A DNA stretch of 63,209 bases, the filler included, from Reclinomonas americana ATCC 50394 (lineage: Eukaryota), in NCBI GenBank assembly GCA_048213135.1. It is 27 parts of 27 records of this genome, joined end to end, with 100 filler letters (N's around TTAATTAATTAA, not from the genome) between each part and the next. Parts side by side here need not be neighbours in the genome. Positions count along the whole stretch, not along the records: positions 9,244 to 13,366 come from AFZH01024460.1; 26 more parts are not named here. The stretch is one strand, 5' to 3'. The notes under the pieces were generated by a model, which did not search any database, had not been told where the DNA came from, and saw nothing but the letters and a program-made list of their open reading frames with translations. Both the position numbers and the translations under genes were made by a program. Below, in pieces: positions 9,144 to 14,485 of this stretch (positions are counted from its first letter, which is position 1; each line of letters starts with the position of its first letter).

Positions 9144-9432
9144 NNNNNNNNNNNNNNNNNNNNNNNNNNNNNNNNNNNNNNNNNNNNTTAATTAATTAAN
9201 NNNNNNNNNNNNNNNNNNNNNNNNNNNNNNNNNNNNNNNNNNNAAGGAGGCCGAGCGCGAGGGCGGAGAGGATCGCGAGCCGCATGGTCTTGCTCCGGTC
9301 GAAAGAGCCAAAATAGGGGTGCTGCAGAGACATTCAAAGGGCAGGGAGCAGGGCAGAAGCCTCTGTGGGGACGGAGGGTGAATTTATCCCCGGTGCCGGC
9401 CCGACAATGCGCGCCGCGCAGAGGGGATGGCC

Positions 9433-10224
9433 ATGGCGCAAGCAGGTTTCGCAACTGCGTTGTTCGACATGCGGCTCGGCGTCGAGTGGATCGCCTTGGC
9501 GCTGCTGGAGTTACGACGCGACCTGCTCGTGAGGCCGCCTCCCAGGCCGATCGCATCCAAGTACAATCCTGATCAACCGCGCGTGCCGGCCGGCAATCCC
9601 GACGGTGGGCAGTGGACGAGCGGGGGTGGTGACGGAAGCTCCGGCGAGGACAGCTCAGTCCTTGAGACAGCCCTCGATGGCTTGGACGACGGCTCTCTCG
9701 ATTGGGCAACGGGCCGGTCGCGTGGAGGCGCCGTTGACTGGCCGAACGCGACGCCTGCCCAGCGGGCTCGACTCGTCGCGTCCGAGTTGCAGGCACAGGC
9801 GGCGATTCGCCGGGTGCAGGAAATCGATGCGCGTTGGAAACCGCCGGCCAGCATTTCGGAAGGAATCGAAGGCGCGATCGCGACGAACCAGGCTGCGGTT
9901 AGGCAAGCGGAGACGCGGCTACGTGAGCTTCAAGGGACGGGGATTGGGCCGGGTCCATTTGCGCAAGAATCGATACCGGCGCGAAGCATGGGCCGAAAGC
10001 TACAAAGAGAGGAACAGCAGGAGATAAATCGAATAGGATCAACCTATGGCTGCCATACCTGCGGTACGAGCCAACCTGGCACAAAGGCGGGAAACTTCGT
10101 CGGCGATCATCAGCTTCCAAACGCAATAGTGACGCCAGGTGGTTCGCAACGGCTGTTTCCGCACTGTCTGAGCTGTAGTTTGCGGCAGGGCGGTCGCATT
10201 ACCGGCATGAAGTGGAGACGATGA
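9433..10224 (+). CDS. Putative polymorphic toxin with C-terminal HNH-like Zn-binding nuclease
   Basis: N-terminal KYNPDQPRVPAGNPDGGQWT motif; C-terminal CHTC...DHQ...PHCLSCS.RQGG. SD GAGGGG 6 nt before ATG 9433 (alternative start 9427). Confidence 0.7.
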   Translation: MAQAGFATALFDMRLGVEWIALALLELRRDLLVRPPPRPIASKYNPDQPRVPAGNPDGGQWTSGGGDGSSGEDSSVLETALDGLDDGSLDWATGRSRGGAVDWPNATPAQRARLVASELQAQAAIRRVQEIDARWKPPASISEGIEGAIATNQAAVRQAETRLRELQGTGIGPGPFAQESIPARSMGRKLQREEQQEINRIGSTYGCHTCGTSQPGTKAGNFVGDHQLPNAIVTPGGSQRLFPHCLSCSLRQGGRITGMKWRR

Positions 10225-10592
10225 CGATGGCCCGGAAAGCAGTCATCTGCCCCAGCAACTCGCTCGTCATCGTATCAGGCGGTGGACCTGTCGACGTTCC
10301 TGAAGACCAGCCGATCGAACCGGTCGCCGCTTCACCGAGCTGCCTGCTGGTGGCCTGCATGCCGGAGGTGGACGGTGATACCGAGTTGACGATGGGTTCG
10401 GCTGCCGAGGTCGATCCGGGCTACGCACCGGGATTTGTCGGCGAGCTCCAGACGCCGAGGTTGCGGATTCTCGTCGAGACGGTCGATGACGAGGTTGTCT
10501 TCGATCAGCCGGTTTGCTCGGCTGTCACGCAGGTCCGCATCTGGTTCAGCCATCCGCGCTGGCCGGAGAAGGTCGTGATCGGGGTCGATTGA
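10221..10592 (+). CDS. Putative immunity protein 1
   Basis: Small acidic protein, ATGA-coupled to the toxin stop; paralog of the next gene. Confidence 0.65.
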   Translation: MTMARKAVICPSNSLVIVSGGGPVDVPEDQPIEPVAASPSCLLVACMPEVDGDTELTMGSAAEVDPGYAPGFVGELQTPRLRILVETVDDEVVFDQPVCSAVTQVRIWFSHPRWPEKVVIGVD

Positions 10593-10605
10593 TCAGGCTT
10601 TCATT

Positions 10606-10980
10606 ATGCCCCGCATTGTCGAAATTCGACCGGTCAACTCCACAGTGTTCGAGCATGGCGGCGGAGATTTTGAGGTCCCATCGGAGAGCTTCGAACCCAA
10701 GGTCAGCCTGGTGGCGGCCTCGTCCAGCTGTCTCATCGTCGGGCTGTTCCCCGAGATCGATGGGCCGACGCAGCTTCACATCGGTGCCGCCGAGGATGTC
10801 GATCCGGGCTGGCCGGCGGCTTTTGCAGGCATGGTCGAGACATCAGCCCATGCCTTGATCATCGATACTGTCGAAGAGGAGATCGTCCATCGCCAGGACG
10901 TGCCGTTAAAGATGACAGCCGTCAAAGTGTGGCTCAGCGATCATCGCTGGCCGGAGCCGGTATTTATTGGCATCGATTGA
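10606..10980 (+). CDS. Putative immunity protein 2 (paralog)
   Basis: Shares AAS.SCL.V...PE.DG.T.L..G....VDPG and W.S..RWPE.V.IG.D with 10221-10592. Confidence 0.65.
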   Translation: MPRIVEIRPVNSTVFEHGGGDFEVPSESFEPKVSLVAASSSCLIVGLFPEIDGPTQLHIGAAEDVDPGWPAAFAGMVETSAHALIIDTVEEEIVHRQDVPLKMTAVKVWLSDHRWPEPVFIGID

Positions 10981-11127: not shown

Positions 11128-11706
11128 ATGGACCACGTTGGGCAGGCACTCGGGTCGCAACCCTGCGATGGTTCCGTGCGCTCGAAGCCAAGCGAGGTCG
11201 CGGTGGCGAATGTCGAGCCGGACGGCAGCTCTTTCTTCGGCAGGGCGGCTTGGCCGCTTCTCATCCTGTCGGCCGTGCTGGCGGCTTATTTCGGGCTGTC
11301 TTCGCTCCTGCTGCCGTTCTTCGGGGTACCGGACCTCTATACGGGGATCGAACGCTGGATCGTCCCCGCATCAGGCGCGCTCCAGCTTGCGGCTGCTGCG
11401 GTGGCCATGATGCTTATCGCCCGGCGCGAGCTGCGCGGCGCGACCCTCGCCGTGGCCGCGTGCTGGATGATGGGATGGCTCGAGACGCTGCCATCCGTCA
11501 CTCGCAGCGGGCTCGACCTCAACGCCGAAGCGCGGCTCACATCGGCCTCTTTCGTCGCATTGCCCGTTATCGCACTCTCGGCCGCGGTGCTGGCATGGGG
11601 GAACCGTCATCCGGTCCTCGCCGCCCTCATCGTGACGGCACCGACCACGGCCGGCGTCCTGTTCGCCCTCGCCTTCGGGATCATGATCGCGATGTACCGC
11701 TTTTGA
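11128..11706 (+). CDS. Hypothetical integral membrane protein
   Basis: About five hydrophobic segments; start uncertain. Confidence 0.6.
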   Translation: MDHVGQALGSQPCDGSVRSKPSEVAVANVEPDGSSFFGRAAWPLLILSAVLAAYFGLSSLLLPFFGVPDLYTGIERWIVPASGALQLAAAAVAMMLIARRELRGATLAVAACWMMGWLETLPSVTRSGLDLNAEARLTSASFVALPVIALSAAVLAWGNRHPVLAALIVTAPTTAGVLFALAFGIMIAMYRF

Positions 11707-11784
11707 GCCGCGACGCCGGCGCCGCTTCCGCGCATGAGCGGACCTCCGCAACAGATTGATGAGCTGCCCGGAGGTCCGCCTTGA

Positions 11785-12759
11785 TCACGGCCAGACAGGT
11801 GCGCCGTCCAGTCCTGCGGTTTCCGGCAGGCCGCAGATCAGGTTCGCATTCTGCACCGCCTGGCCCGCCGCTCCCTTGCCCAGATTGTCGACGACGCCCA
11901 GCGCGATCACCAGGTTGCGCTCCGGATCGGCCGCATAGCTGACGAATGCGAGATTCGAGCCGGTCGCCCATTTGGTCTGCGGCGGCTTCTCGGTCACGCG
12001 GACGAAGGAGCGCCCGGCATAGAAGCGCCGGGCTGAATCCAGGCATTGCTCCGTGGTGGCGTGGCCGCGGCAGTAGATGGTGGCGAGGATGCCGCGGGTC
12101 ATCGGCACCAGATGCGGCGTGAACACCAGCCCGGCCGCGCTGCCGCCGCTCAGCCGCTCGATCGTCCGGGCGATCTCGGGCATGTGGGTGTGCCTGAGCA
12201 GGCCGTAGGGCACCAGGTTCTCGTTGCTCTCGGCGTAGCCGAACTTGCTGTCGCCGCCCCGGCCGGCGCCGGAGATGCCGCTCTTGACGTCGATGACGAT
12301 ATTGCCGGGCTCGATCAGCCTGTCGGCCAGCAGCGGCGCCAGCGCGGTCAGCGTCGCAGCGGGAAAGCAGCCGGGATTGGCGATGCGGGTCTGGCCCTCG
12401 ATCTGGGCCGGCCAGATATCGGCCAGGCCATAGGCCCAGCCGTTGACATAGCGGTGGTCGCCGCCGATATCGACGATCTTCACGTCCCTGGGGACGCGCG
12501 CCAGCGCCTCGGCCGAGGCGCCCGTGGGCAGCGAGGCGAACAGCAGGTCGAGCTTCGGCAGGGTCGCAGGGTCCCATTTCTCGATCACCAGCCCGGCCAG
12601 CTTGGTCGGCACACCGGGGAAACGGTCGACCAGACGGCTGCCGGCGCTGCTCTCGCCGGCGGCGTAGACCAGCTCGAAGGACGGGTGGCTCGCAATCAGG
12701 CGCAGCGCCTCGCCGCCGCCAAAACCGCTGATGCCGACAATGCCGACGCGAATGCTCAT
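11785..12759 (-). CDS. argC: N-acetyl-gamma-glutamyl-phosphate reductase (type 1 ArgC)
   Basis: IANPGCF, KSGISGAGR, FTPHLVPMTRGILAT, DNLGKGAAGQAVQNAN. SD AAAGGA. Confidence 0.97.
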   Translation of the reverse strand: MSIRVGIVGISGFGGGEALRLIASHPSFELVYAAGESSAGSRLVDRFPGVPTKLAGLVIEKWDPATLPKLDLLFASLPTGASAEALARVPRDVKIVDIGGDHRYVNGWAYGLADIWPAQIEGQTRIANPGCFPAATLTALAPLLADRLIEPGNIVIDVKSGISGAGRGGDSKFGYAESNENLVPYGLLRHTHMPEIARTIERLSGGSAAGLVFTPHLVPMTRGILATIYCRGHATTEQCLDSARRFYAGRSFVRVTEKPPQTKWATGSNLAFVSYAADPERNLVIALGVVDNLGKGAAGQAVQNANLICGLPETAGLDGAPVWP

Positions 12760-12783
12760 GGTGATGTCCTTTGGGGTTCGGGC

Positions 12784-12819
12784 AAAGAAAAACCCCCGGA
12801 GCCGAGGGCTGCGGAGGTT
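12784..12819 (-). terminator. Intrinsic terminator (attenuator) in the argC leader
   Basis: Minus strand reads AACCTCCGCAGCC-CTC-GGCTCCGGGGGTT then TTTCTTT, about 25 nt before the argC ATG. Confidence 0.85.
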
Positions 12820-12869
12820 CAGGAATGCGGGCCGGGGTCTTCCGGCGAGTGGGACCTACAGTGAGGCAG

Positions 12870-12968
12870 TCACCACGCGGAAGGACGCTGATCGACGCGC
12901 AGCCAGGAAGCCGCCGCTTGGATGAAGCGGCGTCGGCGTCGGTCGCAAAGGGTCCGGTTCCTGAGCAT
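12870..12968 (-). CDS. Putative Arg-rich leader peptide MLRNRTLCDRRRRRFIQAAASWLRVDQRPSAW
   Basis: 32 aa with 9 Arg, including five consecutive codons CGA CGC CGA CGC CGC (12927-12941). Lies between the promoter and the terminator. Confidence 0.75.
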   Translation of the reverse strand: MLRNRTLCDRRRRRFIQAAASWLRVDQRPSAW

Positions 12969-12975
12969 GTCCGAA

Positions 12976-13004
12976 ACAGTGTCGCTGCCTACATTCATCG
13001 TCAA
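12976..13004 (-). promoter_or_regulatory. Putative sigma70 promoter for the argC leader
   Basis: TTGACG-N17-CACTGT, then 7 nt to the leader ATG, suggesting a leaderless transcript. Confidence 0.6.
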
Positions 13005-13061
13005 GCGGAATGTCCGCTGGCCATCCAAGGCAGACGAGCCAAACTCTGCGGCCGAGCGCAC

Positions 13062-13095
13062 AAAACGAACCCGCGCCGCCCATCCGAGCGGCGCG
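13062..13095 (-). terminator. Probable terminator of malate synthase
   Basis: CGCGCCGC/GCGGCGCG stem followed by GGTTCGTTTT just after the aceB stop. Confidence 0.65.
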
Positions 13096-13107
13096 AGACC
13101 AGTCAAC

Positions 13108-13366
13108 TCAACCCAGCTTGCCGTAAGCCGGCACGGTCAAAAACTCCTCGAACTCCGGCGCCAGCGAAAGCTTCGAGAACAGGTCGATCGCCTCGGGGAA
13201 GCGGCCCTTGTCATAGGCCTCGGCGCCGAGCTCGCTTTTCACCCGGGCCATCTCCTCCGGCAGGCAGCGCTTGAAGAGGTCGGCATCGACCCTGGCGCCG
13301 CCTTCGAGTTCGACGCCGTACTGGACGAACTGCCAGATCTGGGCGCGGCTGATCTCGGCGGTCGCG
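13108..13366 (-). CDS. aceB: Malate synthase A, C-terminal fragment
   Basis: Manual translation ATAEISRAQIWQ...FEEFLTVPAYGKLG*; not in the ORF track. Confidence 0.9.
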
Positions 13367-13466
13367 NNNNNNNNNNNNNNNNNNNNNNNNNNNNNNNNNN
13401 NNNNNNNNNNTTAATTAATTAANNNNNNNNNNNNNNNNNNNNNNNNNNNNNNNNNNNNNNNNNNNN

Positions 13467-13886
13467 CCCTATCGTGGGTCGGCTCCCGCGATCAACGACC
13501 TCGTCGCCGGCCATGTCACGGCGATGATCGACGGTACCGCCGTGCCGATGGCACGCGAGGGCGCGCTGCGGGCGCTCGGCGTCACCGGGCCGAAGCGCTC
13601 GGCCGCCCTGCCGGATGTGCCTACCATCGCCGAGGCGGGCGCGCCAGGCTACGAGTTCGCCTCCTGGCACGGACTCTTCGTGCCGGCGAAGACGCCTGCG
13701 GCGATCGTCGGGCGGCTCAATGCCGAGCTCAACAAGGTCGTCGCCGACCCTGCGGTGCGCGAGCGCATGGCGGCACTCAACATCGATCTGGTCGGCGGCA
13801 CGCCGGCCGCCTTCGGCGATTTCATCAAGGCCGAGGCCGGCAAGATCGCGGAGCTCGTCCGCATCTCCGGCGCCAAGGCGAACTGA
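13467..13886 (+). CDS. Bug/TctC tripartite tricarboxylate transporter binding protein, partial
   Basis: LRALGVTG.KRS.ALPDVPTIAEAG, W.GLFVPAKTP. Confidence 0.93.
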   Translation, partial: PYRGSAPAINDLVAGHVTAMIDGTAVPMAREGALRALGVTGPKRSAALPDVPTIAEAGAPGYEFASWHGLFVPAKTPAAIVGRLNAELNKVVADPAVRERMAALNIDLVGGTPAAFGDFIKAEAGKIAELVRISGAKAN

Positions 13887-13896
13887 GGGCAGGACG

Positions 13897-14485
13897 ATGC
13901 CGGACGCAGCCGCCGACCGTTACGAGGAACTCGCCGGCGAGGCCGTTCCGCCGGCGCAGGCCGCGTCAGAGGTGCCCCGGCGCAACCACGTCCTGTTCGT
14001 GACGGTCGACCAATGGCCGGCGCGGCTGCTCGGCATCGCCGGCCATCCGGTGGTGGAGACGCCGACGCTCGACCAGATCGCCCGTGTCGGCACGCGCTAC
14101 ACCAACGCCTATGCCGAGTGTCCGATCTGCATCCCGGCGCGGCGCTCGATGATGACCGGCACCAGCCCGCGCGGCCATGGCGACCGCGAGTTCCAGCCGG
14201 CCCTGCCGATGCCGGCGCAGCTGCCGACCCTGGCGCAGAGCTTCCGCGACGCCGGCTACCAGACCGCGGCGGTCGGCAAGCTGCATGTCTATTCGCAGCG
14301 CAACCGCATCGGTTTCGAGGAGGCGCTGCTGGCGGAGGAGGGGCGCGGCCATCTCGGCGGCGTCGACGATTACGAGCTCTTCCTCGCCGATCGCGGCTAC
14401 CCCGGCCAGCAGTTCATGCACGGCATGAGCAACAATGAATATGGCTGGCGCAGCTGGCACCTGCCGGAGGAGCTGCACGTCACCA
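13897..14485 (+). CDS. Sulfatase, 3' partial
   Basis: TPTLD, CIPARRSMMTG (CxPxR), GYQT..VGKLH. Confidence 0.93.

Follow-up and report, generated by a model that had tools for sequence, protein, structure and literature searches.

The locus studied here carries an argC gene behind a short reading frame with a run of arginine codons and an intrinsic terminator, and the question it raises is whether this leader senses arginine. For tryptophan, histidine, leucine, threonine, phenylalanine and the branched-chain amino acids, attenuation by a leader peptide belongs to textbook knowledge (trpL, hisL, leuL, thrL, pheL, ilvL). According to the data presented below, the leader is rather likely to be a ribosome-mediated transcription attenuator which senses charged tRNA-Arg and controls an accessory argC gene.

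The window, i.e. the whole stretch of 63,209 nucleotides that was analysed, is composed of 27 short contigs whose joints are 100-base N blocks carrying the TTAATTAATTAA linker (e.g. 9144-9243 and 13367-13466). Leader and argC are situated on the contig at 9244-13366, all on the minus strand. The spacer between the malate synthase A gene and argC comprises 348 nt. Past argC, the ORFs are on the opposite strand and point towards it, and they revealed no match to Pfam or NCBIfam families; since no recognised family follows and these ORFs are convergent, argC stands alone behind its spacer in the window. On the plus strand, three ORFs are located at 9427-10980. The first (265 aa) has Cys/His motifs towards its end; the two small ones behind it (10212-10592 and 10606-10980) by eye resemble paralogues of each other. 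This trio, which is without a Pfam or NCBIfam match, could be toxin-immunity-like. A poly(A) RNA-seq run yielded an identical contig of 3,673 nt which covers 11600-13366 and may be the origin of this DNA, such contigs carrying neither strand, ends nor level; the contigs from other RNA runs cover only parts of the argC stretch. The contigs of run X15 end precisely at the terminator hairpin (12791-12820), where a loose end enters other sequence; this suggests that the sample contains the 30-nt hairpin in at least two contexts.

The elements of the leader and of its surroundings are compiled in the table. Every feature that the sequence-only reading had listed (promoter, ORF, Arg codons, hairpin, the GGCTGCG/CGCAGCC complementarity, terminator, Shine-Dalgarno (SD) sequence and start codon) was recovered at its position; the long-range helix P0 is an addition to that list.

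Table. Position of the argC leader elements and neighbouring features in the window
Feature	Position	Strand	Basis or remark
Malate synthase A, last 85 codons	5' of argC spacer	-	Family profile match
Malate synthase A terminator	13097-13070	-	Terminator scan
-35 box TTGACG	13004-12999	-	Sequence
-10-like box CACTGT	12981-12976	-	Sequence; 17-nt spacer from -35
Mini-ORF, 32 aa + TGA (12872-12870)	12968-12870	-	ATG 12968-12966, 7 nt past -10
Early Arg codons AGG (codon 3), CGG (codon 5)	12962-12960, 12956-12954	-	Sequence
Segment a, sensor: five Arg codons CGA-CGC-CGA-CGC-CGC	12941-12927	-	Sequence
Hairpin a:b (protector, 1:2), 8 bp	12932-12925 with AAGCGGCG 12919-12912	-	5' strand is the 3' half of the run
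Segment b, GCGGCGG	12917-12911	-	May pair with terminator 5' arm 12817-12811 (antiterminator 2:3)
Segment c, GGCTGCG	12904-12898	-	Complementary to b and to CGCAGCC 12813-12807
Helix P0, long-range	12963-12957 (codons 2-4) with 12826-12820, just 5' of terminator	-	Alignment covariation
Middle hairpin, encloses leader stop TGA 12872-12870	12876-12849	-	Leader MFE fold
Intrinsic terminator, loop CTC, T run to 12784	Stem 12819-12807 with 12803-12791	-	Terminator scan (called stem 12810-12791 and T run; full stem with outer pairs 12819-12791)
argC SD AAGGA	12771-12767	-	Sequence
Accessory argC, 324 aa, ATG at 12759	12759-11785	-	TIGR01850
Hairpin just 3' of argC stop, without T run	11779-11738	-	Read from sequence

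The 219-nt leader folds with -87 kcal/mol (z = -2.84), a value reached by three of 200 shuffled sequences. An E. coli-type promoter scan did not call a promoter at the leader; the promoter assignment follows from the invariant TTGAC and its fixed spacing to the ATG. In a search of positions 12000-14000 against Rfam 15 with E values up to 10, no family, T-boxes included, matched the leader, and two weak matches were located elsewhere. Arg runs as such are frequent in this DNA. The window has a GC content of 61%, and its six frames (126,414 residues) contain 34 runs of at least five and 122 runs of at least four Arg residues. For this reason, a single run is weak evidence. The conservation of ATG, run and terminator, in matching places in all 41 aligned leaders, is not weak evidence.

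This alignment is based on a scan of one genome per species, by which 80 loci encoding close relatives of the accessory ArgC were obtained. The same terminator motif was detected at 40 of them, and all 40, like the window, possess an ATG-started ORF with three to six consecutive Arg codons at an equal distance upstream. The design is present at four further loci missed by the pattern, L005 and the sequence-divergent L035, L042 and L056, the leaders of L042 and L056 having little in common beyond the design. The Arg-run ORF which had been expected upstream of argC homologues was thus found, together with the terminator, at 44 of the 80 loci. A DNA pattern scan, which proved too loose for GC-rich genomes, returned 17 true leaders among the 106 matches listed, and at least nine new loci beyond the 44. 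The 40 loci and the window were aligned; of these 41 rows, 25 belong to subtype A, the window among them, and 16 to subtype B. Invariant or nearly so are the TTGAC of the -35 box, the ATG, the run, GCGGCGG (b), GCTGCG (c) and both arms of the terminator (e and f). Segments c and e are separated by 80 nt that occur in two unrelated versions, by which the subtypes are defined; the middle hairpin sequence is subtype-specific, and the -10 sequences of the two subtypes are not alike. TTGAC is found in 41 of 41 leaders, and its distance to the ATG is 37 nt in 31 leaders, 36 nt in seven, 35 nt in one and 38 nt in two. The run comprises three codons in three leaders, four in 20, five in 17 and six in one. 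At least one Arg codon precedes the run in 34 of the 41 leaders; that these early codons are not invariant is explained by the same bases belonging to P0, where they covary. Upstream of the -35 box, a block of approximately 20 nt (GGYCAGCRGACATTCC, 13005-13025 on the minus strand) is kept in the subtype A loci L009, L019, L021, L033, L037 and L060 and might serve as an UP element or as a site for a regulator.

Several properties of the alignment bear on translation. Between ATG and run, the sole indel is one of 6 nt in L034, at the start of the run. On the 3' side of the run there are several 1-nt indels and the peptide tails vary. The distance from the ATG to the stop codon is 94-112 nt in 40 of 41 leaders, and two different frames are used. 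A frame that is kept up to the run and shifted in the tail fits a translation sensor rather than a functional peptide, and the sequences as a whole fit a requirement for translation up to the run and for release within a set zone, the peptide itself being unconstrained. An SD-like motif was identified in one of the 41 leaders. From this scarcity and from the distance between promoter and ATG, the mini-ORF is probably leaderless. The 180 codons of the runs are, without exception, CGA (37%), CGC (49%) or CGT (14%); in the 41 argC genes, CGG accounts for 28% and CGA for 2% of the Arg codons. Under the wobble rules, CGA, CGC and CGT are all decoded by a single inosine-bearing tRNA-Arg.

Covariation was examined for the pairings of the leader. 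In P0, six of seven pairs have changed on both sides and 74.6% of the alignment cells are paired; the helix is predicted with P = 0.5-0.8 in subtype A. In the hairpin a:b (-14.8 kcal/mol in the window; mean -14.6 in subtype A and -18.7 in subtype B), 86.7% of the cells are paired and three pairs have changed on both sides. The terminator (-17.5 kcal/mol) is paired in 99.8% of the cells. None of 500 shuffles reached the covariation score of the counted structure. Covarying stems had been anticipated for both terminator and antiterminator. For the former, this applies to one compensatory change (G-C to A-U in L033); the antiterminator pairings b:e (six pairs, 99.6% paired) and c:e (90.9% paired) consist of invariant bases and are without covariation. 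The change in L033 is compensated inside the terminator, yet it disrupts one c:e pair. If its own 3' arm is set aside, the terminator 5' arm pairs best with c in 38 of 41 leaders (-11 to -18 kcal/mol), and b usually ranks second. Segments b and c may also pair with each other (mean -12.6 kcal/mol).

Taken as an attenuator, the leader would work as follows. Transcription probably starts at or beside the ATG of the 32-codon mini-ORF, and the 3' half of the five-codon Arg run (a) would pair with GCGGCGG (b). With ample arginine, the ribosome would reach the stop codon approximately 100 nt from the start, whereupon the a:b hairpin may reform, P0 may close the leader by joining codons 2-4 to its 3' strand immediately before the terminator, and formation of the terminator would keep argC off. 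When tRNA-Arg is uncharged, the ribosome should stall at the Arg run, or already at the early AGG/CGG codons, and thereby occupy a (or the P0 strand). Segments b and c would then be free to take the terminator 5' arm before its 3' arm is made, which would result in read-through into argC. The sequences show the anatomy of the leader, its conservation, the complementarities and the covariation of P0 and a:b, whereas we infer the leaderless translation, the direction of the switch and the choice of b or c as the working antiterminator.

In these models, the ribosome was represented by a mask from A-15 to A+12, and equilibrium folding was used to ask for the partner of the terminator 5' arm before the 3' arm exists. 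Over the 41 leaders, pairing of the arm with c amounted to 0.51 in subtype A and 0.40 in subtype B when the ribosome was placed on codon 4. On the first Arg codon of the run, pairing with b was 0.16 in subtype A and 0.50 in subtype B. Once the ribosome had moved 10 codons beyond the first codon of the run, pairing of the arm with b or c was about 0 in both subtypes; with the ribosome at the stop codon or absent, it was no more than 0.08 (A) and 0.07 (B). The picture was clearest in the divergent leaders. In L042 and L056, whose Arg run covers codons 8-11, upstream pairing of the arm had P = 0.99 for A sites on codons 8-13; for A sites at codons 15-22, and in the absence of a ribosome, P was 0.41-0.50. 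Its partner is GGCGCG, which pairs with the Arg-run region if no ribosome is present and is covered by a ribosome at the stop codon. In L035, where b is the partner, arm pairing was 0.60 on the Arg codons 10-13 and ranged from 0.15 to 0.43 at the other positions. The modelled logic of these divergent leaders is that of trp, the run being segment 1, b segment 2 and the terminator arms segments 3 and 4. The arginine attenuator put forward by the sequence-only reading has thus gained support: the design recurs before close argC homologues at 44 of the 80 loci, including three divergent forms whose antiterminator-favouring modelled positions lie on Arg codons.

For the window leader, the same mask gave less. 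With the ribosome on the Arg codons 10-14, pairing of the arm with b or c was 0.00-0.08. This near-zero value results from the formation of P0, which excludes arm pairing in a nested model; b:e reached 0.39-0.52 only if the 5' end behind the stalled ribosome was also taken as unavailable. The pairing c:e appeared with the ribosome on codons 2-9, most strongly on codons 4-8, and again on codons 15-16. The antiterminator GGCTGCG:CGCAGCC that had been proposed for this leader therefore keeps its place as the strongest partner of the arm in nearly all leaders; in the window model it forms only at those ribosome positions, and it is missing from L035. A family-wide role as antiterminator strand is, according to the models, better attributed to GCGGCGG (b), which can pair with either the run or the terminator 5' arm. 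Two further approaches gave no clear distinction. A crude co-transcriptional simulation (stepwise MFE, findpath barriers, moving or stalled ribosome mask; 41 leaders in eight scenarios, without pseudoknots) did not discriminate between the scenarios: with the ribosome kept at the fourth Arg codon, the terminator formed in 21 of 38 cases, as compared with 24-30 of 41 in each of the others. Plain MFE folding with masks revealed no consistent antiterminator across the leaders; here, P0 and c:e cross and a nested model cannot hold both. From the models taken together, read-through when the ribosome is held at the Arg codons is the most likely direction.

The window values may also be taken to mean that the switch follows the opposite or a different logic. 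A ribosome on the run would free b, b:c would form and with it the terminator, and read-through would need uninterrupted translation or a stall at the first codons. Such a course agrees with the chain of pairings a:b, b:c, c:e and e:f, in which a ribosome on a would permit b:c and leave the terminator free, as well as with the model of the window leader, in which the standard mask yields c:e for a ribosome at codons 2-9 and 15-16 and none for codons 10-14. We nevertheless regard it as improbable, since the models of L042, L056 and L035 put the antiterminator-favouring positions on Arg codons, subtype B shows b:e at 0.50 on the first Arg codon of the run, and it seems to be of no evident use to turn off an arginine-synthesis enzyme when arginine is short.

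Somewhat less probable still is a structured 5' leader with a constitutively leaky terminator, whose Arg codons would be a by-product of CGN repeats in a GC-rich hairpin and would sense nothing. The run bases double as the 5' strand of a:b, so that RNA structure alone could keep them, and the frequency of Arg runs of four or more in the six frames of the window shows how common they are in GC-rich DNA. An explanation by RNA structure does not, on the other hand, account for an invariant ATG at a set distance from the promoter, for a frame that is held up to the run but not beyond, or for stop codons confined to a narrow zone in two different frames; moreover, the in-frame Arg run recurs where hairpins and terminators differ. 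The invariance of long blocks (b, c, the terminator arm and the stretch preceding it), together with the covariation in the closing helix P0, would also suit a conserved RNA that binds a protein or a small molecule in the manner of a riboswitch or a T-box, the mini-ORF being incidental. This is the least probable of the readings and, in our opinion, very improbable: the Rfam search gave no family at E values up to 10, T-boxes included, the middle 80 nt are wholly different between the subtypes, and in L042 and L056 little more than the design has been kept.

The arginine attenuator has relatives among known systems. In classical attenuators, as in the argC leader, a short ORF contains a run of codons for the end-product amino acid, the protector hairpin includes the control codons, the antiterminator overlaps the terminator 5' arm (in our case by prediction) and an intrinsic terminator is situated just 5' of the gene. 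By contrast, the argC leader would be specific for arginine, its ORF is apparently leaderless and without SD and extends approximately 55 nt beyond the control codons, an extra covarying helix links the 5' end of the leader to the base of the terminator, and its target would be a single accessory, horizontally spread gene instead of a housekeeping operon. A leader-peptide attenuator of alphaproteobacteria has been described with Sinorhizobium trpL (10.1101/606483). For Salmonella speF, Ben-Zvi et al. (2019, PMC6386406) report that pausing at consecutive Arg codons of orf34 at low arginine selects alternative mRNA structures. Like the argC leader, orf34 is a bacterial upstream ORF with consecutive Arg codons. 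It differs in having two of them and in its effects on an ornithine decarboxylase mRNA, namely Rho-dependent termination, accessibility of the ribosome-binding site and decay by RNase G; an intrinsic terminator before an arginine-synthesis gene is not involved. The cysS uORF motif of Rhodobacterales (Brewer et al. 2021, PMC8632094) has a conserved AUG and tandem cognate codons, and the authors interpreted it as ribosome-mediated attenuation. This motif, too, is alphaproteobacterial with a conserved start and tandem cognate codons; it differs in that it contains cysteine codons, precedes a tRNA synthetase gene and is unrelated in sequence to the argC leader.

The name argL, which had been proposed for the leader, should not be reused, as it is taken by an E. 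coli smORF (Weaver et al. 2019, 10.1101/511675). This translated smORF overlaps the 5' end of argF in another frame, and its translation affects argF. Both it and the mini-ORF are small ORFs upstream of a gene of the arginine pathway; the E. coli argL differs in overlapping argF, and neither an Arg-codon run nor a terminator is described in the passages on it. RNA control by arginine is known for T-boxes (Seliverstov et al. 2005, PMC1262725), with which the leader would share the sensing of arginine status at the RNA level. T-boxes differ by binding uncharged tRNA directly, and the argC leader has no T-box match. The relationship to the fungal arginine attenuator peptide lies in arginine sensing by an upstream ORF; there, ribosomes stall at high arginine and translation is lowered. 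A description of an arginine leader-peptide attenuator of an arginine-synthesis gene was not encountered in Rfam or in the searched full texts, which lie mostly outside the subscription journals. The argC leader is real and conserved, and it is probably an arginine version, apparently undescribed so far, of a known mechanism.

The gene itself was identified as argC by a match of its product, the predicted N-acetyl-gamma-glutamyl-phosphate reductase, to TIGR01850 (288.1 bits against a cut-off of 233.6, residues 3-324). To that extent the sequence-only reading was right; what it did not anticipate is that this is not the housekeeping gene. In five of five tested genomes (a Reyranella, a Bosea, a Pseudoroseomonas, a Thalassovita and a Methylobacterium), a canonical argC of the TIGR01851 type was detected elsewhere with scores above the curated cut-off; there is no canonical argC inside the window. 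In these five genomes, the leader-linked ArgC proteins are 87-91% identical to each other across orders, the canonical ones 46-74%, and leader-linked and canonical ArgC of the same genome 32-36%. The leader occurs once in each of the five genomes, solely before the accessory argC. Flanking genes vary by locus, and a close homologue is present in four of 301 evenly sampled genomes of the class, the genome of the query included. The presence of a canonical copy, the high identity across orders and the varied flanks argue for an accessory cassette that has spread horizontally with its own sensor, and it is as such a unit, and not as housekeeping argC, that we read the locus from these sequences. 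Conservation of the cassette extends from approximately 20-25 nt before the -35 box to approximately 55 nt past the argC stop codon; a related contig parts from the window sequence at 13023. The hairpin behind argC likely marks the 3' end of the conserved cassette, and sequence akin to this region also follows argC at the subtype A loci L019, L021, L033, L034 and L060. Direct repeats at the cassette ends were considered and rejected, as shuffled sequences shared words at least as long as the longest ones at these ends (5-9 nt). Among the loci found, the closest ArgC relatives outside the alphaproteobacteria belong to Phycisphaerae (66-77% identity).

At five loci, L031 (929-1501), L087, L135, L165 and L167, a gene for a GNAT acetyltransferase of approximately 190 aa is situated between leader and argC. 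DNA encoding the same conserved GNAT motif was found 3' of argC at L006, L011, L016 and L029. The NCBIfam matches of this protein are weak and mixed and include N-acetylglutamate synthase at an E value of approximately 1e-3. It is conceivable, albeit unlikely, that promoter, leaderless sensor, attenuator, foreign-type ArgC and sometimes GNAT constitute a self-contained mobile back-up cassette, present alongside the argC of the host, that would be on only when charging of tRNA-Arg fails. Its trigger might then be a block of the ArgC step of the host (TIGR01851 type) by the antimetabolite of a competitor or by stress, and the cassette would be a starvation-triggered target-bypass module that moves its own sensor between hosts.

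To our knowledge, alphaproteobacteria mostly lack the ArgR repressor. The argC leader family offers a compact and testable case of arginine attenuation in this class, with two unusual traits, a sensor ORF which is apparently leaderless and a sensor which moves with a single accessory enzyme gene among distant hosts. That it travels with argC alone raises the question of what a spare inducible by arginine starvation is worth to its host. As an element of 230 nt, the leader could act as a portable arginine-responsive switch.

Two further observations concern the relatives of the accessory argC. A second semialdehyde-dehydrogenase (ArgC-like) gene is located directly 5' of the accessory argC at L006 (325-1404), L011 (356-1405) and L025 (84-1169), and at these three loci no leader lies between the two genes. 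Close homologues without the leader, at L002, L012, L025, L027, L030, L054, L057 and other loci, have in common the ribosome-binding region CACTCCAGCAG-AGGACACCACC-ATG and a tail behind the stop codon, TGAGATCTTTTG..., which points to a second lineage of leaderless cassettes.
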